Positions 9,497-63,509 of a stretch of DNA of 64,000 nt are shown piece after piece (the first letter of the stretch is position 1; the number at the start of each line of letters is the position of its first letter). This DNA is from a virus. The DNA lies in IMG/VR virus record IMGVR_UViG_3300023265_000001; one strand, given 5' to 3'. Under the pieces are notes generated by a model, which saw only the letters and a program-made list of their open reading frames with translations, was not told the DNA's origin and made no database searches. Position numbers and translations under genes: made by a program.

Positions 9497-9952
9497 GGGC
9501 GCTCCATCTGGATGCGGGCACCGCGGTAGTGCCCGATTCGAGCAGCGTATACCAGTATGTGGACGCCAGATAGCCCTCCAGATAGGCCCCTGAGAGCCAA
9601 AACCAGGCCTCCGTAGGCCAGTTCCCGCGCCGAGGGGCGTTAGGCCGGCAGCGGCCCGCTGAGCGGGCGCACGAGCCTGTTCTGCTCGAAGGCCGGCCTG
9701 GCCAAAGCAGCGCAGCAAAGTTTTGCGACTCATCGACACCGCGAGGCCCAGAACGCTCCGGGCGCGCCCGCGAGGCGGGGGCAGGGGGTCCCCACCCCCT
9801 CTGACCAGGCAAAACACGGTGCAACTTGACACGTCGGCCCGGGTGTGGTTGTCTGTAGTGGCTTCACCGGAGCGACGCAGCGAGCGAGGCGGGCACAGCC
9901 CCCCGACACTGCGTAACCACAGAGGCAGGCACGGCACGACGCAACACAGCAC

Positions 9953-9993
9953 GTCAAGCTCGACTTGACAGGCACGGCACGGCACGCTAGGTT
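9953..9993 (+). promoter_or_regulatory. sigma70-type promoter 1 with palindromic -35 operator
   Basis: GTCAAG-n5-CTTGAC (9953-9969); TTGACA 9965-70, 17-nt spacer, TAGGTT 9988-93. Confidence 0.6.
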
Positions 9994-10115
9994 GATGGGG
10001 CACGGCAGGGAACGGGCAGGGCACAGGTAGCGCTAGACGGACGCACAGGGACATCACCTGCCTCCGCTACTGACCCCCGCACATACGCCCTGCACAACGT
10101 GCACAGCAAGCAAGC

Positions 10116-10156
10116 GTCAAGCCGCACTTGACAAGCGGGGCGCAGCACGGTACGGT
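10116..10156 (+). promoter_or_regulatory. sigma70-type promoter 2 with palindromic -35 operator
   Basis: GTCAAG-n5-CTTGAC (10116-10132); TTGACA 10128-33, 17-nt spacer, TACGGT 10151-56. Confidence 0.6.
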
Positions 10157-10254
10157 TACACCGCAACATCCCGGCCCACCTGGGCAGGGCGCACGGAAGC
10201 GGGCCACACGGTGGCAAGACGGCAAGCGCACGAATCAAGACCCGCAGTGTGAGT

Positions 10255-10295
10255 GTCAAGCGGGACTTGACAAGTAGGGCCGAGAGCGGTAACGT
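10255..10295 (+). promoter_or_regulatory. sigma70-type promoter 3 with palindromic -35 operator
   Basis: GTCAAG-n5-CTTGAC (10255-10271); TTGACA 10267-72, 17-nt spacer, TAACGT 10290-95. Confidence 0.6.
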
Positions 10296-10926
10296 TCTCC
10301 CCAGCAACACGGACGGCACGGAAGCGGGACGCGGCGAGCGTCAAGACGAACCCCTGGTGGGAAGGCGGGCCTGAGGTCCGCACGCCATAACAGCACTGGC
10401 GACAACCGGTGCACCTCGGGGTGGCTTGTCCTTTGAGAACTCCATAGCGTGGACGTTGATGGGCCGGAGTGTGCGGACCCATGGGTGAGCGTCGAATCCA
10501 GGTGGGCGGTACCGACCCGCTCGCAAAAACCTGGGCAGAAAAAAGGCCGACATTGGCCCCGTGCAGATCCACTTCTGGTGGGCGACGGATACAGCTACTC
10601 CGGTTCACGCCGGACTGCCGTCACGGGATTCCTCTCGGGAGGTTTGGAAACCTCCCCGATCTGGCCGGATCACCTCGGCGTACCTGCCGAGCACACAAAA
10701 ACAGCACCGCGAGGTGTTGGTGACCCTACGTGGCGACATTGTGGAGGCTCCCTGGACGGGTTGAGCTGCAGCGATGGGCGTCAAGACACACCACAGATTG
10801 CGCTTGACGTGGTGCTCGGGGACCTTCCGGGCTGGTGAGGCTGCATATAGCGGCAACCTCCCAGCTAGTGGGTGTCCGAGCACTGCTCTGGCCCAATCAG
10901 GGCAGGGAATCGAGCGAGGAGCGATC
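10296..10926 (+). other. ~0.6-kb untranslated leader / candidate structured RNA
   Basis: No credible ORF in any frame; locally lower GC; several short hairpins (e.g. GGGAGGT ttggaa ACCTCCC ~10637-56, CTCGGC gtacct GCCGAG ~10674-91). Confidence 0.3.
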
Positions 10927-46035: not shown

Positions 46036-48420
46036 ATGACCGACACCACCACACAGCCTCGGCGCCGGCCGCGCCCGCACCCGCCGCGGGAGGCGGACCG
46101 GGAGCCGCTGACCATGCCGCCGCGCGATGACGGCGACGACCCGATCCCGCCGCCGAAGAACCGCAGCCAGCAGGGCCTCGCCCGCCGTGCGGTCCAGCAG
46201 CGCTCGCTCGCGCCGGTCATCTCCGAGGCGCGCATCGCCGCGACCAAGCCGCTCATCCCGGTGGCGCACGCCGCGCGCGAGAAGCTGAAGCCCGTCATGC
46301 ACGCCGGCGTCGGCCTGGCCGGGGCCGCCATGGTCGGCACGCAGATGGCGCAGACGCCGGGCTCCACGCTGCCCATGGCGCTCGCCACTGTCGTCATCGG
46401 CCCGGCAACCTGGTACGCCGGCCGGCAGACGATCGAGCGGCAGATGGCCGGCCTGCCCCCGGAGCGGATCGCCCGCGCTCGCCGGTTCTCCTCGGCCGTC
46501 GCCACCGCGGCCGGCGGCTGGTTCACCTCGGCCGCCGCGCTGGGCGTCGACCCGAACAGCATCGGCGGGAAGATCAACCTGACCGTCGGCGGCCTGATCG
46601 GCCTCTGGGCCGCATCGCCGTACGTCCGGTTCCGCAACCAGCCGCGCATCGTCGCCACCCCTGAGCCCGAGCGGGAGCCGGAGCCGACGCCCGAGGAGGA
46701 AGAGGAGCCGATCGAGGAGTCGCCGATGGGCTTCGCTGTCACCGCGGCGCTGTACCGGACCCGGTGGGCCGAGCGCGTCGCGATCTCGCAGGGCGCCCTG
46801 CCGTCGACCTCGCTCGACCCCGACTCGATCGAAGAGATCAAGGGCGGCTGGACCGCCACCATCGTCTCGGACACCCCGGGCCTGCTCGCGCCGGAGCGGT
46901 TCGTGCCGGCCGGCAGCCGGGTCGCGGCTGCATACGGTGTCGGCCTGGCTGATGTCACGATCGAGACCGCGGCTGACAACGCCTCGAAGGCGCAGCTGAC
47001 GCTGTTCCACGACAACCCGCTGATCAGCTTCCAGCACTGGGCCGGGCCGTACGCGGTCATCAACGGGACCAAGATGTTCGACACGTCCACCGGCGTGGCG
47101 CTCATCGGCCTGCACGCTGATGCTGACCTGGTCCGCTACCGGTTCTGGAACCAGGGCGGCGCCTGGCACGACCTGATCTCCGGGGCCACCGGCTCCGGTA
47201 AGAGCGAGTTCGTCAGCCTGCTGCTGGCCTACGAGCGGCACGCGGTCGTCGAGGTGCCCGTGATGGACCTGGAGACCGGGCAGCCCAAGCTGGACGAAGA
47301 CGGCAACGCGATCACGGTCAAGAAGGGCCTGATCGTCTCTCGGATCATCGACCCGCAGTGGGGTCAGAGCTTTGGCGACTGGCAGGATTCGGTCGACTGG
47401 TTCGCGCCCACGATCGACGAAGCCCGGATTCTGCTGCAGAAGACCGAGAAGGAGATGTACGCCCGCAACCGGGCGTTCGGCCGGACGAAGTGGTACGACG
47501 AGAGGCGCAAGAAGTGGCGGCGCGGGGTCAAGGACTTCCCGCTCAGCCCGGACATGCCGCTGATCGTCATCACCATCGACGAGGCGCACGAGGTCCTGAA
47601 GGACGACGAGTGCAAGCGGATCGTCGCCAAGCTCGGCAAGATGGGCCGGAAGACCGGCATCAAGCTGCGCCTGATCACCCAGGTCCCGCTGCTGCAGGAA
47701 CTGGGTGGCGAAATGGCCATCCGGGACGCGGTCGCCGGCGGTAACGTCGTCGTTTTCCGTACGGCCAACAGCCTCTCGGGTCAGGTGGCCTTCAACGGCG
47801 GCCTGGACCGGGTGCAGCCGCACACGATCCCGCGCGAGTGGCCGAAGGGCCGCGCCAAGCCCGGCGAGGAAACCACGGCTGGACTGGGCTACGCGCTCGG
47901 CCCCAGCTCGCGCTCCGCGATCATGCGCGCCTTCTACCCCGGAGACGCCATCGACTGGATGTACCAGAACGGCGAGGAGTGGGGGATCCCGGGCGTGCTT
48001 GACCGCACCACCCGGGAGGCCGGCACCGGCTACGAGGACCGGCACCAGCGGCTGGCTGAACTGGACGACCTGGACGAGATCCCGGACGGCACACCGGCCG
48101 GGTCGCGCCGGGCCACCGGCATGACCTGCGCCCAGGTCGTCCTGGCGGCGTTCCTGGCCAAGGCGAGCGACGACTACAAGCTGAAGCTGGAGGATCTCGT
48201 CGGGGTTGTCAACGGCGAGTTCAGCGCCCGGATGGTCAGCAACGTGCTGAAGGACTTCGGCAAGCGCGGCTGGGTGATCTCGGGGAAGGCCGGCGACATG
48301 CAGCACGGCTGGCACCAGCTGACGGTCAAGGGTCGTGAGGAGGCCGCGGATCAGCTCTCTGTCGACGACGTGATCGAGAACCCGGCGGCGGACGAAGTGG
48401 CCATGCTCGCCAGATCCTGA
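46036..48420 (+). CDS. traB: FtsK/SpoIIIE-family conjugative DNA translocase (TraB-like)
   Basis: 794 aa; N-terminal TM region, Walker A GATGSGKSEF, Walker B IVITIDEAHE, C-terminal winged-helix-like tail. Confidence 0.85.
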   Translation: MTDTTTQPRRRPRPHPPREADREPLTMPPRDDGDDPIPPPKNRSQQGLARRAVQQRSLAPVISEARIAATKPLIPVAHAAREKLKPVMHAGVGLAGAAMVGTQMAQTPGSTLPMALATVVIGPATWYAGRQTIERQMAGLPPERIARARRFSSAVATAAGGWFTSAAALGVDPNSIGGKINLTVGGLIGLWAASPYVRFRNQPRIVATPEPEREPEPTPEEEEEPIEESPMGFAVTAALYRTRWAERVAISQGALPSTSLDPDSIEEIKGGWTATIVSDTPGLLAPERFVPAGSRVAAAYGVGLADVTIETAADNASKAQLTLFHDNPLISFQHWAGPYAVINGTKMFDTSTGVALIGLHADADLVRYRFWNQGGAWHDLISGATGSGKSEFVSLLLAYERHAVVEVPVMDLETGQPKLDEDGNAITVKKGLIVSRIIDPQWGQSFGDWQDSVDWFAPTIDEARILLQKTEKEMYARNRAFGRTKWYDERRKKWRRGVKDFPLSPDMPLIVITIDEAHEVLKDDECKRIVAKLGKMGRKTGIKLRLITQVPLLQELGGEMAIRDAVAGGNVVVFRTANSLSGQVAFNGGLDRVQPHTIPREWPKGRAKPGEETTAGLGYALGPSSRSAIMRAFYPGDAIDWMYQNGEEWGIPGVLDRTTREAGTGYEDRHQRLAELDDLDEIPDGTPAGSRRATGMTCAQVVLAAFLAKASDDYKLKLEDLVGVVNGEFSARMVSNVLKDFGKRGWVISGKAGDMQHGWHQLTVKGREEAADQLSVDDVIENPAADEVAMLARS

Positions 48421-48511: not shown

Positions 48512-49522
48512 GTGAATGTCTTGCCGAACAGCAAAATCAGAACCCTCCGCCAGCAGGTGGAGGCCGACATCCTGTTCGCCCTCGGCGAGGGAGATGCTCG
48601 CGGGGAAACACTGGCCGACCTGGGCAAGGCTCACGGGCACGACTCGTCCGCCACCCTGCAGGCCCTCAACAAGCTGCACCGGGACAAGCTGATCGGCATC
48701 AGCGGGGCGAACTGGTACCGGCTGACCAACGACGGGGCTTTGGCCCTGCTCTTCCTCCTCGACCGGCTGCCCAAACGCCTCCGCAAGGAGATCCAGCCGC
48801 CGTTCAGCTGGGGCCTCACGCCCACCAATGGGCACCTGGAAGTCGGGCTGCAGGCAGCCGGCGCCTGGCACTACTGGACGCTGTTCGACGACCGCGGCGC
48901 CCACAACGTGCTGGTTGCCGGGTCCTCCGGATCCGGGACGACCAACGCTCTGCGAGTACTGCTGCAGGCGACCGCCAAGTCCGACCTGGTGCGTGTGTGG
49001 GCCGCGGACCCGGCGTTCGACCTCGATCGCGCTGGGGAGTTCGGCATCGATCGCCTGGAGCGCGACAACGACGGGATCGAAGTGCTGATCGACGACGTCC
49101 TCCAGGTCATCGAACGGCGCCACCAGGTTCTCGCCGAGAACGGCGACGCGCGCTGGACCGGCCCCACCCGCGGCATGCCGCTGGGGATCCTCATGCTGAC
49201 CGGCGCGGCCCAGATCTTCGAGCGCCACCCGGACTGGATGCACCGCATTCTGCGCGCCGGCCGGAAGGTCGGCGTAATGGTCGCCGCGGAGGTCGGCGAC
49301 CTGACCCTGAGGACTTTTCAGAACGTGCCGATCCGCGACTCGTTCCTGGCGGACAACGTGCTGATCCTGCGCATGGTCAGCGAGGCATCCATCCCTACGA
49401 TCAAGATGCTGCCCGAGGGCCTCCCCCCGATCCCCCGGTGGATCAACAACCTGTACGTGCCCTCGTCGGGCATCGGGTACGACCAGGACGGCACTCTGCT
49501 GCGGTCCATCTACGTCCCGTGA
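48512..49522 (+). CDS. wHTH + FtsK-like P-loop ATPase (336 aa)
   Basis: GTG 48512 after AGAAAGG; N-terminal MarR/wHTH-like segment; Walker A VAGSSGSGTTNAL. Confidence 0.65.
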   Translation: MNVLPNSKIRTLRQQVEADILFALGEGDARGETLADLGKAHGHDSSATLQALNKLHRDKLIGISGANWYRLTNDGALALLFLLDRLPKRLRKEIQPPFSWGLTPTNGHLEVGLQAAGAWHYWTLFDDRGAHNVLVAGSSGSGTTNALRVLLQATAKSDLVRVWAADPAFDLDRAGEFGIDRLERDNDGIEVLIDDVLQVIERRHQVLAENGDARWTGPTRGMPLGILMLTGAAQIFERHPDWMHRILRAGRKVGVMVAAEVGDLTLRTFQNVPIRDSFLADNVLILRMVSEASIPTIKMLPEGLPPIPRWINNLYVPSSGIGYDQDGTLLRSIYVP

Positions 49523-53243: not shown

Positions 53244-53354
53244 GTCATCCTTCCTGTACGTTGCGTTGTTCAGCCAGAGTACAGCTTCAACTTGACATAT
53301 ACAAGTCGGTGGGCCAACTTGACTTGGGCTGATGAGTACGGCACTATATGCGAC

Positions 53355-53633
53355 ATGGATTTGAAGCAGGCAGATACCGACCGGAGGGTCGGCGCCGTTG
53401 AGGCCAAGGTCGGGGCCGTAATGGTCCTCGAAGAGGCCACCAACGCGTTCGCCGTAGCCCGAAACCAGGCGTACAACCGGCGCGACGCGGCAGTCCGCCG
53501 CGCAGCGCTGGTCCTGACCCAGAAGGAGATCGCGGAGATCACGGGGCTCAGCGCCGAGACCATCCGCAAGATCACCAAGGGTTACCCCGTCAGCTGGCCG
53601 CGCCGGGTGACCGTCCGAGGACTGGCGCGCTGA
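53355..53633 (+). CDS. HTH protein (92 aa)
   Basis: ATG 53355, no SD (possibly leaderless, TATATG just upstream); TQKEIAEITGLSAETIRKI. Confidence 0.5.
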   Translation: MDLKQADTDRRVGAVEAKVGAVMVLEEATNAFAVARNQAYNRRDAAVRRAALVLTQKEIAEITGLSAETIRKITKGYPVSWPRRVTVRGLAR

Positions 53634-53863
53634 TGGCCAGTGACTGGAAGAAGCTCATGGAAGCGCTGAAAGACGAGGACTACGAGGTGGAGCACCAGCG
53701 CGGTGGCCACTACGGGATCTTCAAGGACGGCAAGCGGGTCGGCACGCTGGTCTGCTCGGCCAGCGACCACCGCAGCTGGCAGAACACGCTAGGCCAGCTG
53801 CGCAGACAGCTGAACTTCGACTACCGGCCAAAGCAGACGCGCAGCAAGAAGGAGGAAGAGTGA
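53633..53863 (+). CDS. HicA/YcfA-like small protein (76 aa)
   Basis: ATG overlaps upstream TGA; WKKLMEALKDEDYEVEHQRGGHYGIF.DGKRVGTL resembles HicA toxin layout (weak). Confidence 0.4.
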   Translation: MASDWKKLMEALKDEDYEVEHQRGGHYGIFKDGKRVGTLVCSASDHRSWQNTLGQLRRQLNFDYRPKQTRSKKEEE

Positions 53864-55038
53864 CCCAGCTCGACGAGGTATTCGATCTCGATCTTTTCGA
53901 CCGGATGGTCAACGAGCGATTCGTGCGGGTGCAGTACCACCCGACGGAGCCGCTGGCGATTGCCAACTACACGGAGACCGCGGTCTTCGACAAGGCCTGG
54001 AACGGCGTCACCCTGCAGTGCCGCGGCCTGATCTACAACACCGCGACGTTGGAGGTGGTCGCGCGGCCCTTCCGGAAGTTCTTCAACCACTCGGAGGGCG
54101 CAGCGCCGGCCATCGGCCTGAACGCGCCCGTGACCGTCACCGACAAAAAGGACGGCTCGTTGGGTGTGCTGTACCGGATGCCGGTCAGCGGTAAGTGGGC
54201 GGTCGCGACCCGCGGCTCGTTCACCAGTGAGCAGGCCGCTCGCGCCACCGTGCTCTACCTGATGAACTACGAGGCCCGGTTCGAGCCGCGGCCGAGCCTC
54301 ACGTACCTCTTCGAGATCATCTACCCCCAGAACCGCATCGTCGTGGACTACGGCCGCATGGCGGATCTGATCCTGCTCGGCGCCGTTGACATCCGGACCG
54401 GCAAGTCGATCAGCCCCGGCGTCATCCAGGACGAGCAGATGCTCGGGCGGCGCTGGCCCGGCCCGGTCACCGAGACCTTCAGCTACCGCACGTACGGCGA
54501 GGCCCTGGCAGCCGCGCCCCGGCCGGGCATGGAGGGCCTGGTCGTGCACGACCTGCTCACCGACGAGCGAGTGAAGATCAAGCAGGAGGACTACGTCACC
54601 CTGCACCGGCTGGTCACCGGCCTGACCTCGCGGCGCGTGCACGAGGCGATGCTGGCCGGCATTGACCTCGACGAGTTCATCGCGCCGCTGCCGGACGAGT
54701 TCCACGACTGGGTGCGCGGCGTCGCCGCCGACATCGACTTCGTGGTGCGGGAAGCCAACCGCGCCATCAACCGGCAGTGGCACCGCGTGGTCGCCACCTG
54801 CGAGGAGCAGTCTGCGGAGGGCGAGTGGCCGGCCAGCGTGAGCATGGGCATGGACACCGGCAGCGCGCTGACGCGCGAGCAGCGCAAGCTGTTCGCCTCG
54901 ATCGCGCAGTCGGAGACCTACGCCTGGGCGCTGTTCGCACGCCTCGACGGGCGGGACTACCAGGAGAAGCTGCTCAAGCAGGCGGAGCCGGAGATCGAGA
55001 CGCCGCAGGGCCGGACCTTCACGGAGGCGACCGCGTGA
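53860..55038 (+). CDS. T4 Rnl1-family RNA ligase
   Basis: GTG 53860 after AAGGAGGA; LQCRGLIYN, RPFRKFFN, motif I TDKKDGSL, TRGSFTSEQA, YLFEIIYPQNRIV, MEGLVVH, KIKQEDYVTLH match T4 RnlA landmarks. Confidence 0.8.
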   Translation: MTQLDEVFDLDLFDRMVNERFVRVQYHPTEPLAIANYTETAVFDKAWNGVTLQCRGLIYNTATLEVVARPFRKFFNHSEGAAPAIGLNAPVTVTDKKDGSLGVLYRMPVSGKWAVATRGSFTSEQAARATVLYLMNYEARFEPRPSLTYLFEIIYPQNRIVVDYGRMADLILLGAVDIRTGKSISPGVIQDEQMLGRRWPGPVTETFSYRTYGEALAAAPRPGMEGLVVHDLLTDERVKIKQEDYVTLHRLVTGLTSRRVHEAMLAGIDLDEFIAPLPDEFHDWVRGVAADIDFVVREANRAINRQWHRVVATCEEQSAEGEWPASVSMGMDTGSALTREQRKLFASIAQSETYAWALFARLDGRDYQEKLLKQAEPEIETPQGRTFTEATA

Positions 55039-55391
55039 ACGCCGCTGACCTGGCCCTGGCCACCTGGGCCGACGATCACTACTACCTGCTCCAGCGGGCC
55101 ATCCAGCTGCAGTACCGGACCATGCGGGATTTCGCTGAGACCGCGACCGGGGCGCTCAGTGGTGACTACCTCCGGCTGGCCGACAGGTGGCAGTGGATGG
55201 ATCGCTACCTGTTCAACATCGTCGGCGAGAACCAGGACACCGCCGACTGGGTCGCCGAACACAGAGAGAACTTGGCGCAGGCCCTGGAGCAGCTGGCTCT
55301 GTCTTACTCGCAGTGGGGTCATAGCCGTCGAGTCATCCGCGCCGACCGGGAGGAGTTCCTGCGCCTGGCCAGAGAGGTCGCGGGAGAGTGA
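55035..55391 (+). CDS. hypothetical protein (118 aa)
   Basis: GTG 55035 overlaps upstream stop (GTGA). Confidence 0.5.
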   Translation: MNAADLALATWADDHYYLLQRAIQLQYRTMRDFAETATGALSGDYLRLADRWQWMDRYLFNIVGENQDTADWVAEHRENLAQALEQLALSYSQWGHSRRVIRADREEFLRLAREVAGE

Positions 55392-55777
55392 GGCGCGAGT
55401 ACGACGGCGGCCCCGGTCCGAACCCGTACTGGAAGCCGCGCAACAGCGCGAACGGCAACCGGGCGCATGACGCGTTCAACGAGTGGCAGCTGACCATCGG
55501 CTACGCCGCCGGCCGGGAGATTCCCTGGCCGGCGGGCCACCGGCTGGAGGGCTCTACCGGGATCACGCCGGACGGCTTCACTCCTGACGGCGCCCCGGTG
55601 GAGCTGAAGTCCGGGCACGCCCTCCACAGCAAGGCCTCGCGCCGGCAGCTGCACAAGGCCATCTCGGTCCTGGATGCACAGTACGGGGAGATGTGGCTGT
55701 GGGTAGCCGACAGCGGCAACTTCCGCTTCACGCTGGCGTATCGAATGGACCGCGAAGGCAACGTCACAGCGGCTTGA
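55388..55777 (+). CDS. small PD-(D/E)xK-like (restriction-endonuclease-fold) protein, paralogue A
   Basis: GTG 55388; GITPDGFTPDGAPVELKSG fits PD..(n)..ExK; paralogous to 55841..56260. Confidence 0.5.
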   Translation: MRREYDGGPGPNPYWKPRNSANGNRAHDAFNEWQLTIGYAAGREIPWPAGHRLEGSTGITPDGFTPDGAPVELKSGHALHSKASRRQLHKAISVLDAQYGEMWLWVADSGNFRFTLAYRMDREGNVTAA

Positions 55778-55840
55778 CACGACCGAAGAACGCGCGCACG
55801 AGCAGTTCAACATCTGGCAGCAGACCAAGGGGGAAATGAT

Positions 55841-56260
55841 ATGACCGACGAGCAACAGGACTTCCACGAGAATCGCATCGGCGCCACCGAAGTACGAGAT
55901 CGATTTCGGGATTGGCTTCTCACTATCGGCTACCAGCCCTGCTCGTTGCAGCGACACCTGGACCCGGGGGAGGTGGGCGCCAGGCCGGGCTTCCTGGCTG
56001 GGGGTGGGTACTGGGTCATGCCGACTGCCCTGAACTATCACGGTGAGCCCGTGTTGCTGAAGAGCGAGCACTCTTTCAACTCGAAGGCTGGCCGAAAAAA
56101 GTTGCGAGGTTTCATCAACCGCGGCAACAAGAATTACGGCGAGATGTGGGTCTGGTCGGAGGACGGAGACAGTCTTCGTTTCCGGCAGGCATATCTGATG
56201 GGCAAGGACGGCAGCATCTTCTCTCCTAGCCATCACGCTGATTGGTTCGAGATCAGCTGA
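55841..56260 (+). CDS. paralogue B of 55388..55777 with degenerate catalytic motif
   Basis: Shared W.LTIGY, PV.LKS.H...SKA.R..L, YGEMW.W, RF..AY.M...G; PD and E positions replaced (MPTA..LLKSE); visibly lower GC3. Confidence 0.55.
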   Translation: MTDEQQDFHENRIGATEVRDRFRDWLLTIGYQPCSLQRHLDPGEVGARPGFLAGGGYWVMPTALNYHGEPVLLKSEHSFNSKAGRKKLRGFINRGNKNYGEMWVWSEDGDSLRFRQAYLMGKDGSIFSPSHHADWFEIS

Positions 56261-56272
56261 TCCACCAGAAAA

Positions 56273-57337
56273 ATGTCGTACCCAACCGGTACGCTGACCG
56301 GTAAAGCCAACGGAGGAGGAAAGTTGTCCGGAATCAACTACGTCAACCACGTCGTCTTCGTCGTGGACGAGTCGTCCTCGATGCACAACCACAAGCACGA
56401 GGTTGTACGGGTCGTCGACCGGGAGGTCGCCCATCTCGCTCGTAGGTCCCAGGAGCTGGACCAGGAGACCCGAGTCTCGGTCTACACGTTCAACAGCACC
56501 GTGCCGGATCCGATCTTCTACGACAAGGACGTCCTGCGCCTCCCGTCGATCGCCAACCACTACCGCCCCGGCGGCAGGACGGCGCTGATCGACGCCACCA
56601 TCAAGAGCCTGGACGACCTCGGGAAGACTGCTCAGCTCTACGGCGACCACGCCTTCCTCGTCTACGTCGTCACGGACGGCGAGGAGAACCAGTCGCGCCT
56701 CAGCTCCCCCGATCTGCAGGACGCGCTGAAGCGCCTCCCGGAGGAGTGGACGGTCGCCGTCCTGGTGCCGAACATGCGCGGGAAGCACTGGGCGCAGCAG
56801 GACGGATTCGCGCCCAACAACATCGCCATCTGGGACCCCAACGCCAGCGACGGCGTCGAGGACGCCGGCCGGACGATCCGGACCTCTACCGACGACTGGA
56901 TGGCGGACCGCGCCCGCGGCAAGCGCGGCACCAAGGCCCTGTTCTCCACCGGGGTCGATGCCGTGAACGCGGCGACGGTCCGGTCCAGCCTGACGCCGCT
57001 GGGGCCGAACAACTACGACGTCCTGAAGGTCCACGAGGACTCCTACATCAGGCCCTTCATCGAATCCAAGCCCAAGATGCAGTTCGACTCCTACAGGCGG
57101 TTCTACCAGCTGACCAAGACCGAGACGATCCAGTCGAGTAAGCGGATCGCCGTCCGGGAGAGGCAGACCGGCGCGTTCTACACCGGGCCGGCCGCGCGCG
57201 ACCTGCTGGGCCTGCCCGGCATGGATGTCCGGGTCAAGCCGGACTACAACCCGGAGTACGACGTCTTCGTGGAGTCCACCTCCGTGAATCGGCGCCTGAT
57301 CGCGGGCACCGAACTGCTGCTGCTGCCGCTGAGCTGA
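56273..57337 (+). CDS. vWA domain protein with ~150-aa C-terminal extension
   Basis: MIDAS VDESSSM, GGRTALIDA, VVTDGEENQS; ATG 56273 lacks SD, TTG 56324 preceded by GGAGGAGGA is an alternative start; stop in SIR-36. Confidence 0.75.
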   Translation: MSYPTGTLTGKANGGGKLSGINYVNHVVFVVDESSSMHNHKHEVVRVVDREVAHLARRSQELDQETRVSVYTFNSTVPDPIFYDKDVLRLPSIANHYRPGGRTALIDATIKSLDDLGKTAQLYGDHAFLVYVVTDGEENQSRLSSPDLQDALKRLPEEWTVAVLVPNMRGKHWAQQDGFAPNNIAIWDPNASDGVEDAGRTIRTSTDDWMADRARGKRGTKALFSTGVDAVNAATVRSSLTPLGPNNYDVLKVHEDSYIRPFIESKPKMQFDSYRRFYQLTKTETIQSSKRIAVRERQTGAFYTGPAARDLLGLPGMDVRVKPDYNPEYDVFVESTSVNRRLIAGTELLLLPLS

Positions 57338-57395
57338 TCGTCTGGGTGAGGGTGCGCGCCGCCACCGCGGCGCGACGCCTCCGGCAGACGGCCGG
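57334..57395 (+). repeat. SIR-36, family B, isolated copy
   Basis: CTGATC + outer stem GTCTG/CAGAC + GTGAGGGTG + GCGCGCCGC cacc GCGGCGCG + CGCCTCCGG ... GGCCGG. Confidence 0.8.
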
Positions 57396-57411
57396 CACAG
57401 AAAGGGGAAGC

Positions 57412-57888
57412 ATGGGCACCTATCACTACGGCCACCTTGCGTACGGCATCGACATGGGCGGCAGCGAGAAGGCCGAGATCGTCGAGGTCGACGAGTACGG
57501 CACGATCGACCTGCCGTGGCTCGTCCGTGACGACGAGGGGTACCCCGACCACGACCTGTCGGAGGCAGTCACCAGGCGGCTGTACGAGCTGATCCCCGGC
57601 ACGCCGCCGGTGAGTGAGGCCTGGGGAGTGAGCGACCGCGTCAAGTCGCACTACGGGGTCGAGATGCTGGAGCACGGCTGGCCGACCGAGGGGCAGACGC
57701 CCTGCTGGGTCCTGTCGACCTTCCACTTCTCGGTCGACGGCGGCGACACGCTGGCTATCGACCCGCAGGAGATGATCGACCGCGTGACCGAGAGCGGCTG
57801 GAACGAGATGCTCGCCGCCGCCCTGGCCAAGCTGGAGATCACCCCGAACAACCCGACCCCGCGCTGGTACCTGCTGGCCGACCGGTGA
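57412..57888 (+). CDS. hypothetical acidic protein (158 aa)
   Basis: ATG 57412 after AAAGGGGAAGC. Confidence 0.6.
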   Translation: MGTYHYGHLAYGIDMGGSEKAEIVEVDEYGTIDLPWLVRDDEGYPDHDLSEAVTRRLYELIPGTPPVSEAWGVSDRVKSHYGVEMLEHGWPTEGQTPCWVLSTFHFSVDGGDTLAIDPQEMIDRVTESGWNEMLAAALAKLEITPNNPTPRWYLLADR

Positions 57889-58163
57889 CCGACGAGGGCA
57901 TGCTGACCCAACGCGAGGTCGAACACGAGGCTCACGAGCGGCACCACGCGTACGGAGAGATTCCGACCTGCCTGTGGTGCCTGGAGGAGATGGGGCCGGG
58001 CGCCGCCCGAACGATCATGAACGCTCCTCCGGCCGAGCTGCAACTCGCTGAGATGCGCAAGCGCATGGCGGCCATGGCTGTGGAGTACCGGCGCGAGTCG
58101 CGCTGGATCCGCTCCGACGCGGTCGCCGAACTGCTGGAGGACTGGCTCTCGATCCAGCCCTGA
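57885..58163 (+). CDS. hypothetical protein (92 aa)
   Basis: GTG 57885 overlapping upstream stop (ATG 57900 alternative). Confidence 0.5.
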   Translation: MTDEGMLTQREVEHEAHERHHAYGEIPTCLWCLEEMGPGAARTIMNAPPAELQLAEMRKRMAAMAVEYRRESRWIRSDAVAELLEDWLSIQP

Positions 58164-58206
58164 GCACGGCGATGACAACCACACGACAGCACGACGAGAG
58201 GACCGA

Positions 58207-59361
58207 ATGAGCACCCTGAACGTCTCCATCGCAAGACTGACCATCCACCCGCACCCGAACGCTGACCGCCTGGAGCTGGCCCAGGTCGGCCTGTACTGCG
58301 CCGTCGTCGCCAAGGGCGCGTACCAGACGGGCGACTGGGCGCTCTACATCCCGGAGCAGGCGGTCCTGCCGCAGCCGCTGATCGAAGAGCTGGGCGTCGG
58401 CGGCTTCCTCGCCGGCAAGGACAAGAATCGGGTCCGCGCGGCCCGGCTCCGCGGCGAACTGTCGCAGGGCATCGTCTGCCGGCCTCAGAAGCTCAGTGAC
58501 GCGCTGCGGCGCGAGGACCCGAACTGGAACTGGGACGGCCCGGTCCTCGACGAGGTCGACCCGCCCACGTATACGGACTTCGCGGAGTACCTCGGCATCG
58601 AGAAGTGGGTGCCGCCGATCCCGACGAACATGGCCGGACAGGTCTACGCCCCCGACCGGCTGCTGCGCTGGGTCGACATCGAGAACATCAAGCGCTACCC
58701 GGAGATGTTCGAGGCCGGCGAGCCGGTCATCGCGACCGAGAAGATCCACGGCACCTGCTTCATGCTCACCTTCCAGGACAGCGGCGAGGTCGCCGTGTCC
58801 TCCAAGGGGTACGGCGGCAAGGGCCTGGCCATCGAGCGTGACCCGAACAACCTCTACTGGCGTGCGGCCAACGCCTACAGCCTGGAGACCTTCGCGGACA
58901 ACGTTTCGATCGTGGCCGGCGCACCGACTGTCGCGCTGTTCGGCGAGGTCTACGGGGCCGGCGTACAGGACCTGGCGTACGGGACCGATGTGCACCGCGG
59001 GGCGCCCGGCTTCGTGCTCTTCGACATCGCCGTGGACTACGGCGACGGCGTACAGGTCTTCCTCCGGCCCGAGGAGTACGACCGTGTCGTCCGGGAGGTC
59101 AACGAGAAGATGCTCAGCGAGCGCATCCTCGACCAGCCGGTGCTGACCGCGCCGGTCCTGTACGAGGGGCCGTACGACGAGCAGGCGCTGCTCGCCCTGG
59201 CCGAAGGTGGCACTGAGCTGGCCGACGTGGACCAGATCCGCGAGGGCCTGGTCGTTCGCCCGATCAAGGAGGCGCGCTCGCCGATCACGAACGGCCGCAA
59301 GATCGGGAAGATCGTCAGCGAGTCGTACCTGCTCCGCAAGAACGGGACGGAGTTCGAGTGA
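58207..59361 (+). CDS. Rnl5-type (DraRnl/NgrRnl-like) RNA ligase with N-terminal OB module
   Basis: 384 aa; ARLRGELSQG, LGIEKWVPPIPTNMAGQV, motif I TEKIHGT, EGLVVRP, matches by eye to NgrRnl/DraRnl. Confidence 0.8.
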   Translation: MSTLNVSIARLTIHPHPNADRLELAQVGLYCAVVAKGAYQTGDWALYIPEQAVLPQPLIEELGVGGFLAGKDKNRVRAARLRGELSQGIVCRPQKLSDALRREDPNWNWDGPVLDEVDPPTYTDFAEYLGIEKWVPPIPTNMAGQVYAPDRLLRWVDIENIKRYPEMFEAGEPVIATEKIHGTCFMLTFQDSGEVAVSSKGYGGKGLAIERDPNNLYWRAANAYSLETFADNVSIVAGAPTVALFGEVYGAGVQDLAYGTDVHRGAPGFVLFDIAVDYGDGVQVFLRPEEYDRVVREVNEKMLSERILDQPVLTAPVLYEGPYDEQALLALAEGGTELADVDQIREGLVVRPIKEARSPITNGRKIGKIVSESYLLRKNGTEFE

Positions 59362-59639
59362 GCCGCGGAGACGACGGGCTCGCCGTTACGATCCTGGGCG
59401 GCACGGCCGCCCTCCTGGTGGCGGCGCTCGGCATCGCTGCCTGCTCGCCGGCCGGGGAGCAGGACAAGACCAAGGCGCCGGCCGGGCCGGTGCAGATCAG
59501 CCCGAAGCCGTTCACCAGCGACGTCGGGGAAATCTTCCGGTTCGAGACGACGATCGACGGGGCGCCGGTGACCTGCCTGGTCTACGACGGCAACCGCGCC
59601 GGCGGCCTCCACTGCTTCAGGAAGGAGGAGCTGAAATGA
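59358..59639 (+). CDS. lipoprotein (93 aa)
   Basis: GTG 59358 overlaps upstream stop; lipobox-like LGIAAC. Confidence 0.5.
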   Translation: MSRGDDGLAVTILGGTAALLVAALGIAACSPAGEQDKTKAPAGPVQISPKPFTSDVGEIFRFETTIDGAPVTCLVYDGNRAGGLHCFRKEELK

Positions 59640-59746
59640 CCCCGAGAGCGACGATGGTCCTGCTGGGCGCAATTCTCGTGCTCGCACTGATCGCGCTGGG
59701 GCTCGGTGTCGCCCTGGGGCAGAGCGCCGACTTCGGCGCACGCTAG
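59636..59746 (+). CDS. tiny membrane protein (36 aa)
   Basis: ATG 59636 after GGAAGGAGGAG; single TM; below ORF-track cut-off. Confidence 0.4.
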   Translation: MTPRATMVLLGAILVLALIALGLGVALGQSADFGAR

Positions 59747-59756
59747 GGCGAACAGC

Positions 59757-59792
59757 AAGAAGCCCCCGCCAGACTGGCGGGGGCTTCTTTGC
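59757..59792. terminator. bidirectional intrinsic terminator
   Basis: AAGAAGCCCCCGCC agact GGCGGGGGCTTCTT + T. Confidence 0.75.
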
Positions 59793-59794
59793 GC

Positions 59795-60280
59795 TCAGAA
59801 CCCGGCGAACAGGCACGAGACGAAGAAGATGCAGAGGATGTGCCAGCTCTGGTCCAGGTGAAACAGGGCCGTACCCGGGCCGACCTCGTGCACGCCAGCG
59901 CCGCGGGCCACGTTGCAGTGCTCGATGTATTCGGTCAGCCCGACCTTGCCAGCCGCCCACCGCAGCGGGGTGCGCAGGTCAGCCAGGAAGTGCGTGCCGG
60001 CGTGCAGCACCATGCCGGTGGCGATCCATCCGGGGCGCAGCGGCAAGTTCACCTGGGCAGCGACGAGCAGGAACAGGCCCAGGCCGAGCGCGCAGTAGGT
60101 GGCGACGTGTTTGGCGCAGTGCCACACGGCGTCGGCCGTTCGGCCGTTCGGCTGGCCCAGGGCCTTCTTCAGCGCCTGGCCGCCGGTCTGCAGCCAGTGG
60201 TCCCCGAAGTAGTGGGCGGCGAGCAGCGCGGCGAATGCCAGGGCGATCGTCAGGGCACGGATCATGTCGTTGGTTTCCAT
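59795..60280 (-). CDS. DUF3307-like membrane protein
   Basis: 161 aa; AHYFGDHWLQT and later conserved His residues between TM segments. Confidence 0.55.
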   Translation of the reverse strand: METNDMIRALTIALAFAALLAAHYFGDHWLQTGGQALKKALGQPNGRTADAVWHCAKHVATYCALGLGLFLLVAAQVNLPLRPGWIATGMVLHAGTHFLADLRTPLRWAAGKVGLTEYIEHCNVARGAGVHEVGPGTALFHLDQSWHILCIFFVSCLFAGF

Positions 60281-60437
60281 ACGCTGATTCGACCAGGCAT
60301 TCCGGGTTGGTTCTGTGTCAAAAGGCGTGTTCGAGGTGTCGGGTGCGCTACACCATGAGACCTCGTGACAATGTCAAGCTGGTGTTGTATGCTGCTACCG
60401 AGCGGCTGAGAGTTCAGCTGCAAAGAAAGGGGCCGGT

Positions 60438-61370
60438 ATGACGAAACTGACCATCACACGGGGCCTGCCCGGTTGCGGTAAGACCACCGAGGCCCGCCGG
60501 CGCGTCGCGGAGAACCCGCGGCGTCTGGCTCGGGTCAATCGCGACGACGTCGGCGCGCAGCTGCACGGCCGGCGCTTCTACGAGGACCCCGACCTGATGC
60601 GCTCCACGGAGAGGGCCATCACCGTGGCGCAGCACGCGCAGATCGCCGAGCTGCTCAAGCGGGGCTGGGACGTCATCTGCGACGACACCAACCTCGCCCG
60701 GCGCGTCGCGAGGGACCTGCGCAACCTGGCTGTTCGGTGCGGCGCCGAGTTCGAGATCGTCGACATGCTCGAAGTCCCGCTGGAGACGGTCTTCGCGCAG
60801 AACGAGATGCGCGCCGGCACCGACGCCTACGTGCCGGTCGATGTCATCGAGCGGATGATCCGGCGGTACACCGGCAAGCAGGCCTACGAGGTCCCGTTGA
60901 ACCCGGAGCCGACGAGTGACCTCGATGGCTTCAGGGTGTACGAGCCGGAGCCCGGCCTGCCTGACGCCGTCATGGTCGACATCGATGGCACGGTCGCCCT
61001 CATGGGCAGCCGCAGCCCGTACGACGAGTCGCTCGTGCACGAAGATCTGCCGAACGAGGCGGTCATCGAGTCGGTCCGGGAGGCGCACGACGCCGGTAAG
61101 GACATCGTGTTCTGCTCCGGTCGAACCGCGGCGGCCTACGACGCCACCTACGCCTGGGTCGAGCGCGTGGTCCAGGTCCCGATCGCGGGCCTGTTCATGC
61201 GCAAGGTCGGCGACACCCGGAAGGACGACATCGTCAAGCTGGAGCTGTTCGACGAGAACATCCGCGGCCGGTGGAACATCTCCCGGGTCTACGACGACCG
61301 CGATCAGGTCGTCCGGGCCTGGCGGTCGATCGGCCTGCCGGTCTTCCAGGTGGCGGAAGGCAACTTCTGA
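60438..61370 (+). CDS. pnkp: T4-type polynucleotide kinase / 3'-phosphatase
   Basis: 310 aa; GLPGCGKTT, NRDD, DDTNL, phosphatase DIDGT, CSGR, GDTRKDDIVKLELF, DDRDQVVRAWRSIGLPVFQVAEGNF: near-collinear with T4 PseT. Confidence 0.9.
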   Translation: MTKLTITRGLPGCGKTTEARRRVAENPRRLARVNRDDVGAQLHGRRFYEDPDLMRSTERAITVAQHAQIAELLKRGWDVICDDTNLARRVARDLRNLAVRCGAEFEIVDMLEVPLETVFAQNEMRAGTDAYVPVDVIERMIRRYTGKQAYEVPLNPEPTSDLDGFRVYEPEPGLPDAVMVDIDGTVALMGSRSPYDESLVHEDLPNEAVIESVREAHDAGKDIVFCSGRTAAAYDATYAWVERVVQVPIAGLFMRKVGDTRKDDIVKLELFDENIRGRWNISRVYDDRDQVVRAWRSIGLPVFQVAEGNF

Positions 61371-61597
61371 TGTCGGTGGAGGAGATCCTCGCGCGGATGA
61401 TGCTGTTCGTGATCCGGGTGGCCTGGGTCGCGCTGGTCGTCCTGCTGGGCACCGGCCTGAGCTGGCTGGTCTGGGGCGACGTCCCGGAGCTGAAGCTTCT
61501 TGTCGTCGGCGGCCTGGCAGGCTTCGGCCTGGCATGGGTGCTGACGCCGCTGTTCGTGAGCGCCAAGCCGAACGGGGTCAGCGATGGCTCTGTCTGA
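61370..61597 (+). CDS. small membrane protein (75 aa)
   Basis: ATG 61370 overlaps pnkp stop; two TM. Confidence 0.5.
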   Translation: MSVEEILARMMLFVIRVAWVALVVLLGTGLSWLVWGDVPELKLLVVGGLAGFGLAWVLTPLFVSAKPNGVSDGSV

Positions 61598-61934
61598 GGA
61601 GGCGCAGCGGGAGTACGACGAAGCACTGCGCCGGGCCACGATCCGCAACGGGTCGGTGCTCGCCACGAGGGAGCGCCGCTTCGGGTGGCAGGACTTCGAG
61701 GCGACGTTGCACCTGGGGCAGTGCGGCGGCACCTCGGAGCTGAACGCCCAGGAGGACTTCTGGCACGAGTTTGCCGGCACGTTCGCCGAGGCGGGCGATC
61801 ACGAGAAGCACGGGGTGTCGCTCAAGGGCGTGTCCTGCCAGTGCGGTGAACTGTCCGACCGGGAGGTTCGCTGGACCGACTACCCGTCGGCCATGACCGA
61901 GGCGGTCTTCGGGGAAGCCTTCGGGCGGCGCTGA
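61584..61934 (+). CDS. hypothetical protein (116 aa)
   Basis: ORF track. Confidence 0.55.
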   Translation: MALSEEAQREYDEALRRATIRNGSVLATRERRFGWQDFEATLHLGQCGGTSELNAQEDFWHEFAGTFAEAGDHEKHGVSLKGVSCQCGELSDREVRWTDYPSAMTEAVFGEAFGRR

Positions 61935-61944
61935 CCTCTTCTGT

Positions 61945-62022
61945 CCGCGATAGCAAGTGCCATGTGCGATGGCAAACCTGTAGCAAATGCTATGGCAAAT
62001 GCCATGACACTTGCTATCGCGG
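61945..62022. promoter_or_regulatory. 78-bp palindromic ATRGCAAA iteron operator
   Basis: CCGCGATAGCAAGTG ... ATGGCAAA ... AGCAAATGCTATGGCAAATGCCAT ... CACTTGCTATCGCGG, 30 nt upstream of ATG 62054. Confidence 0.75.
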
Positions 62023-62053
62023 AGCAGTGGAAGCCAGACAGAAGGGACAAAGC

Positions 62054-62287
62054 ATGTTTGTGATCGTCATCAACGAACGCCCTCTGTTCGGGGAGCCCGG
62101 CGACCGCTACGAGGTCGAGTTCGGCGACGACTTCGACGCCGCCTCGGAGGCGCTCGTCGAGTGGGCCGACTGGATGGACAGGGGCGTCGACAGCGTGCTC
62201 GCGCTGAACAACCCGAAGGGGGACGGGTGGAACATGCGCCCTGTCCTCATCGCTGAGATCGCACTGACCTACCGGAGGGACACATGA
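62054..62287 (+). CDS. hypothetical acidic protein (77 aa)
   Basis: ATG 62054 after GAAGGGACAAAGC. Confidence 0.55.
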   Translation: MFVIVINERPLFGEPGDRYEVEFGDDFDAASEALVEWADWMDRGVDSVLALNNPKGDGWNMRPVLIAEIALTYRRDT

Positions 62288-63051
62288 CCGAAGATCGACC
62301 CACCCGAGAAGAGCCGCAGTACGTGATCCTGGAAGGCGTTGTCGGCTCGACCGCCTACAACCTGGCCACCCCGACATCCGACCGGGACCGGCTCGGCGTT
62401 TTCCTGGAACCCACCATCAGCTTCCTCAGCCTGGACGGCGTGCCCGAGAAGCGCCGGAGCTGGGTCGGCCCCAAGGCCGCCGGCGACCGCGCGCTGCACG
62501 AGGTCGGCAAGTACTGCGACAAGCTGCTCGGCGGCAACCCGACCTACACCGAGCTGCTCTGGCTGCCCGGCCGGCTGTACGAGGTCGTCACCGACCTGGG
62601 TCTGCAGCTGATCGGGTTGCGGAGCGCGTTCCTGTCGGCGAAGGCCGTCGAGGACTCCTACCTGGGCTACCCGGTCGGGCAGTTCTCCCGGCTGGAGGGC
62701 CGCAAGAAGAAGGCCGGCGAGGGCGAGCAGGTTGGCTTCAGCTCGGACCTGCGCAAGCAGACCGAGAAGCACGCCAGGCACATGCTCCGCCTGCTGGTGC
62801 AGGGCTTCCAGCTCTGGGAGACCGGACAGCTGACGGTCAGCCTGACCGATATGGAGGCCGCGGAGTGCAGGGCCTTCGGCCAGGAGGTCGCCGAGCTGGC
62901 CAGCAAGAACAAACCGATCGCCATCGCCGACGAGAAGCTGGCCGAGTACCGGGCCAAGTTCGCCGGCACACGCACGGCGCTCCCCGAGCGCCCGGACCGG
63001 GAAGGGGTAGACGCATGGCTGAAGGCAGTTCGCCTGGCCGCACTGCGGTGA
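62284..63051 (+). CDS. Pol-beta-superfamily nucleotidyltransferase (RlaP-type, RNA-ligase-associated)
   Basis: 255 aa; GVVGSTAYNLATPTSDRDRLGVF (GS..n..D.D NTase signature); ATGA overlap. Confidence 0.65.
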   Translation: MTEDRPTREEPQYVILEGVVGSTAYNLATPTSDRDRLGVFLEPTISFLSLDGVPEKRRSWVGPKAAGDRALHEVGKYCDKLLGGNPTYTELLWLPGRLYEVVTDLGLQLIGLRSAFLSAKAVEDSYLGYPVGQFSRLEGRKKKAGEGEQVGFSSDLRKQTEKHARHMLRLLVQGFQLWETGQLTVSLTDMEAAECRAFGQEVAELASKNKPIAIADEKLAEYRAKFAGTRTALPERPDREGVDAWLKAVRLAALR

Positions 63052-63509
63052 CCGGCTTCGAGCGCTACGAGACCGACACCCTGCTGCGCATCCACGCCAA
63101 CCTCCGGAACGGCTCGAAGCAGGTCGCCATGTCGGAGGCGGCCGGTACACTCCATGTTCGCCCGAAGCCCGGCGCGGCCACACCGTCCGAGGCCGGCTTC
63201 ACCTTCGTAGCACTGCTCGAAGGCATCAACCACGTGCTCGCATCGAGAGGAATACCTGTGGTCGACTCCCGCAACCCGTACCAGGTCCAGGCCGGTCAGA
63301 TCTGGCAGGACAACGACGCGCGCTACCGCACGCCGGACACCTACCGGTTCATCAAGGTTCTCGGGCTGGACCTCGCCGGCGGCAAGGCACTGGTGGAGAC
63401 CGTGACCGCCGACGGTGCCCCCACTGACGGCCGCCAGCGCTCGATCAAGCTGACCCGGTTCCTGTCCAACAGCACCGGCTACCTGCGCCGGGCGGACCTG
63501 GACCGGTGA
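63048..63509 (+). CDS. hypothetical protein (153 aa)
   Basis: GTG 63048 overlaps upstream stop (GTGA). Confidence 0.5.
   Translation: MTGFERYETDTLLRIHANLRNGSKQVAMSEAAGTLHVRPKPGAATPSEAGFTFVALLEGINHVLASRGIPVVDSRNPYQVQAGQIWQDNDARYRTPDTYRFIKVLGLDLAGGKALVETVTADGAPTDGRQRSIKLTRFLSNSTGYLRRADLDR

Follow-up and report, generated by a model that had tools for sequence, protein, structure and literature searches.

The closest described relatives of the locus analyzed herein are the RNA-repair enzymes of bacteriophage T4, which we take to be the set of Pnkp (pseT), Rnl1 (gp63), Rnl2 (gp24.1) and the RlaP protein NrdC.11. Genetic analysis of T4 has tied Pnkp and Rnl1 to the anticodon nuclease PrrC, and the name RlaP was reportedly introduced by Burroughs and Aravind in 2016. 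The biochemistry of RlaP has been established on Pseudomonas proteins of the RtcB operon, for which the addition of 1-2 nt to damaged RNA 3' ends was demonstrated, and T4 NrdC.11 is itself an RlaP (PMC12776372, a preprint). In jumbo phages, RtcB, Rnl1 or Rnl2 are combined with a kinase/phosphatase, RlaP and TROVE, which has been interpreted as countering host attack on tRNA, and RlaP and RNA ligases have parallel distributions in phages (Iyer et al. 2021, PMC7824862). In addition, Chen et al. (2014, PMC4201824) observed YrlA RNAs in 22 phages, on the strand of Ro and no more than 4 kb from it. In the present study, we analyzed a 64,000-nucleotide stretch of viral DNA (IMG/VR record IMGVR_UViG_3300023265_000001; the whole stretch is referred to as the window), in which positions 53860-63051 encode two ATP-dependent RNA ligases, a polynucleotide kinase/phosphatase, RlaP and a protein with a von Willebrand factor A (vWA) domain. 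This 9 kb stretch likely serves an uncultured tailed phage as a cassette for the healing and sealing of RNA ends, and its purpose is probably counter-defence.

Repair enzymes and the tailed-phage genome that carries them

Open reading frames (ORFs) were selected with the guidance of the G+C content at third codon positions, and this selection agrees with the gene calls stored for the source contigs. The genes run on the + strand from approximately 53.3 kb to the end of the window, with one minus-strand gene breaking the run, and four enzymes of RNA repair are encoded in this run. First, the gene at 53860-55038 (+) encodes a T4 gp63-like ATP-dependent RNA ligase of the Rnl1 family (392 aa), which matches PF09511 (E 1.5e-11), the T4 Rnl1 structure 2c5u (E 2.5e-10) and, over residues 17-381, phrog_562, annotated "RNA ligase and tail fiber attachment catalyst" (E 3.6e-61). 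The motif I lysine K96 lies in KKDGS, aligned to T4 KEDGS, and motifs IV and V, EGLVV (E225) and KIK (K239/K241), are aligned to T4 EGYV and KIK. A C-terminal domain of the Rnl1 type, which would confer tRNA specificity, may be present: the phrog_562 match covers profile positions 19-366 of 377, but the direct alignment with the T4 structure ends at residue 274. Second, the gene at 58207-59361 (+) encodes another ATP-dependent RNA ligase of 384 aa, in which an N-terminal OB domain (PF21189, residues 11-90, E 2e-8) is followed by a nucleotidyltransferase (NTase) domain (PF09414, residues 172-370, E 6.4e-20) without the C-terminal domain of the Rnl2 type. This is the architecture of PHA02142 and of the NgrRnl-DraRnl ligases ("Rnl5"), consistent with the matches to phrog_968 (E 6e-34) and to NgrRnl 5cot (E 2.6e-12, residues 13-352), and the motifs K179 (EKIHGT), REGLVV at 345 and KIGK at 365 were identified. 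Third, a bifunctional polynucleotide 5'-kinase/3'-phosphatase of the T4 PseT type (Pnkp, 310 aa) is encoded at 60438-61370 (+). This protein matches PF13671 (E 1.2e-22), PF25109 (E 8e-50) and phrog_505 (E 1e-87), and residues 1-310 are collinear with residues 1-301 of T4 Pnkp 1ltq (E 1.7e-36). The kinase motifs GLPGCGKT (K15) and NRDD (D36) are aligned to T4 GCPGSGKS and NRDD, and the 3'-phosphatase (HAD) motifs are DIDGT at 181-185 (D181/D183) and DDR at 286-288 (D286/D287). Fourth, the gene at 62284-63051 (+), located 2.9 kb downstream of the second ligase, encodes an RlaP-type Pol-beta nucleotidyltransferase of 255 aa, which matches PF10127 (E 2e-12, 47.8 bits against a cut-off of 23) and phrog_388 (E 1.4e-29) and carries the Pol-beta signature GS...DxD as G21-S22 and D33-R-D35; a sequence search of the PDB with RlaP gave nothing. 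The earlier note on this DNA had read these four genes as an Rnl1-family ligase, an Rnl5-type OB-fold ligase, a Pnkp almost collinear with T4 PseT and an RlaP-type nucleotidyltransferase. All four identifications held, and the active-site residues on which the note had staked them, namely the ligase lysine, the Pnkp P-loop and DxDGT, are present on alignment.

The arrangement of these genes is conserved in diverged relatives. Two other large contigs (L019 and L021), with lengths of 140,724 bp in one case and 49,407 bp in the other, keep the order Rnl1-vWA-Rnl5-Pnkp-RlaP with 48-69% amino-acid identity. In full, the order kept is Rnl1, small ORFs, the vWA gene, a 158-aa ORF, the second ligase, a minus-strand membrane gene, Pnkp, small ORFs, RlaP and a 164-aa ORF, and the Rnl1 orthologues found at the same position in related phages are 60-61% identical. 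The 140,724-bp relative also keeps the downstream genes for dCTP deaminase, thymidylate synthase, thymidylate kinase (Tmk), RNase H and Ro, with ThyA replacing ThyX. This exchange between ThyX (PF02511, L014 7527-8216) and ThyA (PF00303, L015 7401-8198) represents a non-orthologous replacement in place.

Outside this phage family, a compact block of Rnl1, RlaP, an ORF resembling the 164-aa ORF and Pnkp was observed in an unrelated IMG/VR contig (L009), where RlaP directly follows Rnl1. In Streptomyces phage LilMartin, an Rnl1-type ligase lies two small genes upstream of Pnkp, inside an array of tRNA and transfer-messenger RNA (tmRNA) genes. Homologues of Pnkp were found in 2263 phage records, and no full-length Pnkp was found among the 72,556 plasmids of PLSDB. 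Homologues of RlaP were found in 230 phage records, mostly of actinophages. The OB-NTase ligase was found in 177 records but in full length in only 21, among which jumbo phages of Caulobacter and Brevundimonas gave the best matches. In a single-sequence scan of IMG/VR, Pnkp retrieved one distant contig; the same scan with the vWA protein retrieved no contig, and an alignment query did recover homologues. At the DNA level, the 9 kb had no match in collections of phages and plasmids.

The replicon that carries the cluster is a phage. The window is a base-for-base match (100% identical) to the 140,613-bp ENA metagenome contig k141_1605235 (ERZ27228469; JGI Ga0247760_1000013), and the G+C content of the genome is 67%. 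Independent assemblies of the same element, of 140,573, 140,661 and 141,047 bp, have different start points, which indicates a circular or circularly permuted genome with a length of ~140.6 kb. Upstream of the window, a DnaE-type polymerase and a nucleoside deoxyribosyltransferase are encoded; downstream of the window lie the genes for dCTP deaminase, ThyX, Tmk, RNase H and a 571-aa TROVE/Ro protein. Walking further downstream through strain-variant contigs (L014 to L016 to L018, with overlaps 99.4-100% identical) first reaches a DnaD/O-like replication initiator and DnaB and, beyond DnaB on the opposite strand, an endolysin, virion structural proteins, a minor tail protein of 959 aa (phrog_538, E 5.5e-38; PF14594) and the distal tail protein Dit (in L018, matching phrog_106 and phrog_33). 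Because these virion and lysis genes are contiguous with the locus via overlaps of at least 99.4% identity, the element is a tailed phage (Caudoviricetes). A GH25 lysin is encoded inside the window, and PHROG matches were obtained for 21 of 79 small window ORFs, two HNH endonucleases among them.

The host of this phage is probably an actinobacterium. The DnaE-type polymerase shares 51% identity with its counterpart in Saccharomonospora phage PIS 136 and ~46% with the polymerases of Streptomyces phages. PIS 136, the best DnaE match, was considered as a close relative and rejected, as only four genes are common to both phages. The nearest cellular homologues of the Ro protein (46-49% identity) were found in Streptosporangiales, Micromonospora and Streptomyces, which might point to the host.

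Proposed function and rival explanations

Herein, we propose a mechanism based on homology with T4, in which the healing-and-sealing pathway was first defined, and with biochemically studied relatives. Pnkp would convert 2',3'-cyclic-phosphate/5'-OH ends into 3'-OH/5'-phosphate ends through 5' phosphorylation and removal of the 3' phosphate, and RlaP would restore one or two 3' nucleotides where the nuclease had trimmed the end too. Rnl1 would reseal broken tRNA loops, and the OB-NTase ligase would seal 3'-OH/5'-PO4 nicks in duplex RNA. A further contribution, probably to RNA quality control, comes from the Ro/TROVE protein and its YrlA-like RNA, which lie 9 kb downstream of Pnkp. Healing and sealing of RNA cut by host ribonucleases, which had also been suggested in the earlier note, is the accepted reading of the same set in T4 and in jumbo phages (PMC7824862; PMC12776372). 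No tRNA gene was found in the ~120 kb examined, apart from the tRNA-like YrlA element, and the phage therefore seems to rely on repair rather than on tRNAs of its own. Scans for tRNA genes and Rfam families at gathering thresholds in the window and four flanking loci gave no matches.

The Ro module lies outside the window. The Ro/TROVE gene (571 aa, PF05731) occupies L014 10001-11716, ~7 kb past RlaP, and the YrlA-like tRNA-like RNA is located immediately upstream on the same strand (L014 9801-9932), so that RNA and gene together span approximately +70056 to +71971 in window coordinates. In a search of 461 nt, the YrlA model RF02553 matched over its full length (E 6.4e-5), but the 31.1 bits obtained do not reach the gathering score of 69; ARAGORN calls part of the element a tRNA-Val(CAC).

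Several observations weigh against the cluster as a dedicated repair cassette of a phage. Approximately ten ORFs without assigned function and one minus-strand membrane gene interrupt the cluster, which is not a tight operon. In the second ligase, motif I is KIHG in place of the KLDG of NgrRnl, with His replacing Asp; we take KIHG to be the form of motif I found in T4 Rnl2. In Pnkp, the HMMER alignment places Gly at the position of T4 Pnkp Arg38, a residue essential to the kinase, and Arg44/45 are located nearby. Finally, the genome walk did not reach capsid, portal or terminase genes, ~30 kb of the 140.6 kb genome being outside the walk.

Among the rival explanations, the best survivor accepts the enzymes as real and assigns them separate housekeeping roles in the phage, grouped only because accessory genes accumulate in this arm of the genome. 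Rnl1 might act in tail-fibre attachment as T4 gp63 does, a dual function also noted in the annotation of its PHROG family; Pnkp might be a DNA 3'-phosphatase in nucleotide or DNA metabolism; and a general role in RNA quality control with Ro might be a third function. The roughly ten unrelated small ORFs that dilute the cluster, the lack of a clear single promoter or terminator framing it, and its continuity with the nucleotide-metabolism genes are consistent with such an accumulation, as are the Satis-like Streptomyces phages, in which tens of kb separate RlaP, Ro and the vWA gene. However, unrelated viral contigs and isolates also have Rnl1, RlaP and Pnkp side by side, and the genetic link of Pnkp and Rnl1 to PrrC in T4 is established knowledge. 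The parallel distribution of RlaP and RNA ligases in phages (PMC7824862) also argues for a common task. We therefore consider independent housekeeping roles rather unlikely, and prefer a joint role of these enzymes in the healing and sealing of RNA.

A second possibility concerns the vWA protein, which the earlier note had placed at 56273 and considered a partner of the repair enzymes. The protein is real (PF00092, E 3.6e-6; phrog_26613, E 1.9e-92), although the start at 56324, giving a protein of 337 aa (56324-57337, +), is favoured over 56273 by gene callers and by homologue lengths. It consists of a vWA domain with a metal-ion-dependent adhesion site (MIDAS) and a C-terminal beta-rich domain, and the MIDAS residues D-x-S-x-S...T...D (D15, S17, S19, T86, D118) are invariant in 49 homologues. 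In the AlphaFold2 model (predicted local distance difference test score, pLDDT, 87), the predicted fold of the N-terminal half matches integrin I domains (probability 1.0) and the anthrax-receptor vWA domain; the C-terminal 130 residues, modelled separately at pLDDT 92, are predicted to be beta-rich, and a fold search of the PDB with this domain gave no credible match (best E 0.02, template modelling score 0.24). The fold search with the full model retrieved generic vWA domains and nothing more specific, and a sequence search of the PDB found nothing. The homology search returned 2258 matches, of which the best 120 are at least 55% identical, ~334 aa long and almost entirely metagenomic, and none of these best 120 bears an informative name. 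The cultured phages that have the vWA protein are all large (Myrna, Phabba, Satis-like Streptomyces phages, Cr30 and a cyanophage), and the vWA protein of the 49,407-bp relative was also found on contigs of up to 101,565 bp.

The 337-aa protein might be a scaffold or cofactor of repair whose MIDAS joins the substrate to a ligase or to the Ro particle. Its invariant MIDAS motif is compatible with this idea, and in three diverged members of the phage family the vWA gene lies between the two ligases and is followed by the same 158-aa ORF. To examine co-occurrence more widely, the neighbourhoods of 80 IMG/VR and 6 GTDB loci (86 in total, not phylogenetically independent) were inspected with 10-kb flanks. 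When the 131 proteins of the phage were compared with these loci, Ro/TROVE recurred in 15 of 86, the next best protein reaching 3; the vWA gene was inside a tRNA array in 19 of 86; and all seven Streptomyces phage records with a vWA gene also carry Ro and RlaP. In contrast, Rnl1 was found within 10 kb of the vWA gene in 1/86 and Pnkp in 2/86, and Rnl5 and RlaP in none (0/86 each). In three loci (L020, L023 and L024), the vWA gene lies near PnuC and NadR-like genes of NAD salvage, its neighbours in Phabba and Satis are hypothetical genes, the homologue in Frankenweenie is annotated as a minor tail protein, and the fold searches offer generic vWA matches only. A partnership with the repair enzymes was thus not confirmed by the co-occurrence check over the 86 loci, as the position between ligases is confined to this phage family. 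We therefore regard a scaffolding function in repair as quite unlikely, and the broader proposal of a new cofactor role in the tRNA/RNA maintenance of phages, in which the 337-aa vWA-MIDAS protein would act with the Ro/Y-RNA particle or with the ligases and would be neither an unrelated passenger nor a virion component, as equally improbable.

The proximity of the vWA gene to tRNA arrays and Ro was considered as functional proof and rejected, as its rates (22-38% and 17%, respectively) are near a rough random-placement estimate for a 130-kb genome that carries such features, and the loci are not independent of each other; the link of vWA with Ro and tRNA is a lead, not a result. Several related observations were made in the same set. 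In eleven IMG/VR loci (L040, L045, L046, L049, L065, L069, L084, L091, L094, L097 and L098), which stem from other uncultured phages, an array of 20-33 tRNA genes surrounds the vWA gene; Ro is often located within a few kb, and tmRNA was called in L045 and L062. The six GTDB loci (L105-L110) comprise vWA genes (48-49% identical) in five Streptomyces assemblies and one metagenome-assembled genome of Marmoricola; three of them are on contigs of 0.49-1.4 Mb, these genes may be in prophages, and no Rnl, Pnkp, RlaP or TROVE gene was found within 10 kb of vWA in L105-L110. The window also encodes a second, different vWA gene, whose product is a 227-aa vWA-only protein (7379-8062, -; phrog_7371, E 2e-34). 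According to the gene callers, the 528-aa minus-strand ORF 7379-8965 that contains it is probably over-extended, and a 267-aa protein of the inositol-monophosphatase family (PF00459), encoded at 8198-9001 (+), overlaps the rest of that ORF.

The earlier note had described the whole as a conjugative element. Two genes upstream of the repair cluster, both kept in the related phages, probably prompted this description. The first encodes an FtsK/SpoIIIE-like protein of 794 aa (46036-48420), which has homologues 33-35% identical over about half its length in 126 actinomycete plasmids, mostly of Streptomyces, and the second, which follows it, encodes a 336-aa protein (48512-49522) with a similar weak P-loop match. 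A DUF932 protein is also encoded in the window; this protein matches the phage family phrog_1221 as well (E 3.4e-59). The proposal that the cassette is cargo of a conjugative plasmid or integrative and conjugative element, shielding the incoming element from anticodon nucleases of the recipient, could draw on these genes and on the absence of the contig from the IMG/VR collection searched, but its probability is negligible, since the ~140.6 kb element carries Dit, minor tail, virion structural and endolysin genes on the same contiguous DNA, joined through independent assemblies with overlaps of at least 99.4% identity, the replisome and nucleotide-metabolism genes form a set typical of large lytic phages, the FtsK match is under the Pfam cut-off (18.6 vs 24 bits) in a gene that related phages keep, no relaxase or type IV secretion family was found in Pfam and PHROG scans of ~90 window proteins, and the cluster DNA has no plasmid match in PLSDB. 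The redundancy of ligase families, which had been called unusual, would be so for plasmids, as no PLSDB plasmid carries a full-length T4-type Pnkp, but it is normal for large phages.

Small genes of the cluster and features of the early region

The head of the + strand run is a gene for a helix-turn-helix (HTH) protein of 104 aa (53319-53633, +), with weak HTH_3 and Sigma70_r4 matches (E ~2e-4) that are below the Pfam cut-offs. It is followed by a gene for a small phage protein of 76 aa (53633-53863, +; phrog_2089, E 5e-15, with a faint HicA-like PADLOC match, E 0.0036), which overlaps the start of Rnl1 by 4 nt. In the related contig L021, a weak Phd/YefM-antitoxin match was observed at the position of these two genes upstream of Rnl1.

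Downstream of Rnl1, a gene call of 118 aa (55035-55391, +) without Pfam or PHROG match precedes two ORFs of 129 aa (55388-55777, +; partly conserved in relatives) and 139 aa (55841-56260, +), which are paralogous to each other with 33% identity (E 5e-20). These two ORFs had been read in the earlier note as a PD-(D/E)xK-like pair. They are a true pair of paralogues, but the nuclease fold is putative, as neither matched a Pfam, PHROG or PADLOC family. The 158-aa ORF directly after the vWA gene (57412-57888, +) has orthologues 44-47% identical in L019 and L021 and no family match, and the gene call of 87 aa that follows (57900-58163, +) has no matches. Between the second ligase and Pnkp, two small ORFs of 93 and 36 aa (59358-59746, +), which are gene calls of hydrophobic sequence, are predicted to be membrane or secreted proteins, and the only minus-strand gene of the cluster (59795-60265, -) encodes a DUF3307 membrane protein of 156 aa (PF11750, E 8e-5; phrog_2470, E 1.7e-16), whose orthologues in L019 and L021 occupy the corresponding place and are 56% identical. 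Three small ORFs of 75, 116 and 77 aa without family matches occupy 61370-62287 (+), and those of 116 and 77 aa are kept between Pnkp and RlaP in relatives. Finally, the 164-aa ORF at 63015-63509 (+) overlaps the 3' end of RlaP and has no family match. This ORF is conserved together with RlaP, as its orthologues follow RlaP in L015, L019 and L021, and in the unrelated contig L009 the similar ORF between RlaP and Pnkp is 32% identical. PADLOC assigned no defence system to the ORFs without a family, and any contribution of these small proteins to repair would be conjectural.

Further observations were made outside the cluster. Approximately 29 copies of a structured intergenic repeat of ~60 nt, belonging to two sub-families, are located on the + strand between 11046 and 30711 of the window, and none lies within the repair cluster. 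The stop codon (CTGA) of a small early gene marks the start of each repeat, which extends to just upstream of the ribosome-binding site that follows. Every copy forms a single long hairpin with interruptions (-44 to -46 kcal/mol, z about -4 to -4.7) and without a U tract, and at least one difference between two copies is apparently compensatory. These repeats may serve for processing of the RNase III type or for the stabilisation of mRNA, as do the hairpins between the early genes of T7. Promoter-like motifs, in three tandem copies each composed of TTGACA, a spacer and a TAnGnT-like hexamer, were observed at 9950-10296, at the point where the leftward and rightward gene blocks diverge. Moreover, five copies of GTGTCAC-N7-ACTTGACA are present in the small-gene array, at 14009, 17285, 21756, 26226 and 32838. 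Outside the window, between the replication genes and the lysis/tail block, a protein with a neprosin domain (PF03080) is encoded at L018 10001-11074 (approximately +90.3 to +91.4 kb in window coordinates). The 29 matches to this protein with E <= 1e-10 are all metagenomic (jgi, lgn and ena), several of them on contigs of 30-130 kb.

Comparison with described repair systems

The present phage resembles T4 in the possession of Rnl1, a second RNA ligase, a Pnkp collinear with that of T4 over its full length and RlaP, in a phage genome of the lytic type. Whereas the repair genes of T4 are scattered in the genome, those of the present phage lie within 9 kb, with the vWA protein and the Ro/Y-RNA module added, and the phage appears to belong to a high-GC actinobacterial host. 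In addition, the second ligase consists of an N-terminal OB domain and an NTase domain, not of the NTase and C-terminal domains of Rnl2.

The jumbo phages described by Iyer et al. (2021, PMC7824862) are similar in combining several ligase families with a kinase/phosphatase, RlaP and occasionally ROT/TROVE. However, the genome of ~140 kb is below the jumbo range, and jumbo phages usually supplement repair with tRNA arrays, none of which was found here in the ~120 kb examined. The pairs found in cultured actinophages (for example, in Streptomyces phage LilMartin, a Samistivirus, and in Arthrobacter phage Bauer) also show an Rnl1-type ligase (40% identity) one or two small genes upstream of Pnkp (40%), but the pair is located in a tRNA/tmRNA array, and a second ligase, RlaP and vWA are absent from the 19 kb inspected.

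Bacterial operons of the RtcB-RtcA-RlaP and Pnkp/Hen1 types likewise join a ligase with an end-healing enzyme and a nucleotidyltransferase. The present module differs from these operons in lacking RtcB, RtcA and Hen1, in the use of ATP-dependent ligases for 5'-phosphate ends, and in being viral and not controlled by RtcR. Concerning the Ro60/Rsr-YrlA systems, the TROVE gene with an adjacent YrlA-like RNA on the same strand is comparable, although this module is outside the window and the YrlA score is 31 bits against the Rfam cut-off of 69.

With the present locus, a lineage of uncultured soil actinophages joins the numerous phages with T4-style RNA healing and sealing enzymes; the locus otherwise matters little beyond correcting the misreading of a phage as a conjugative element. 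It is nevertheless a useful specimen, with four enzyme classes, Ro and a Y-RNA-like element within ~18 kb, an OB-NTase ligase that is rare in cultured actinophages, and an apparent reliance on repair over tRNA genes of its own. If the vWA protein were a cofactor of RNA repair or of Ro, a modest new piece of phage-host conflict biology would be added. Compared with the systems described above, the toolkit belongs to a well-described kind, and the residual novelty is the uncharacterised vWA family together with the features of the early region.

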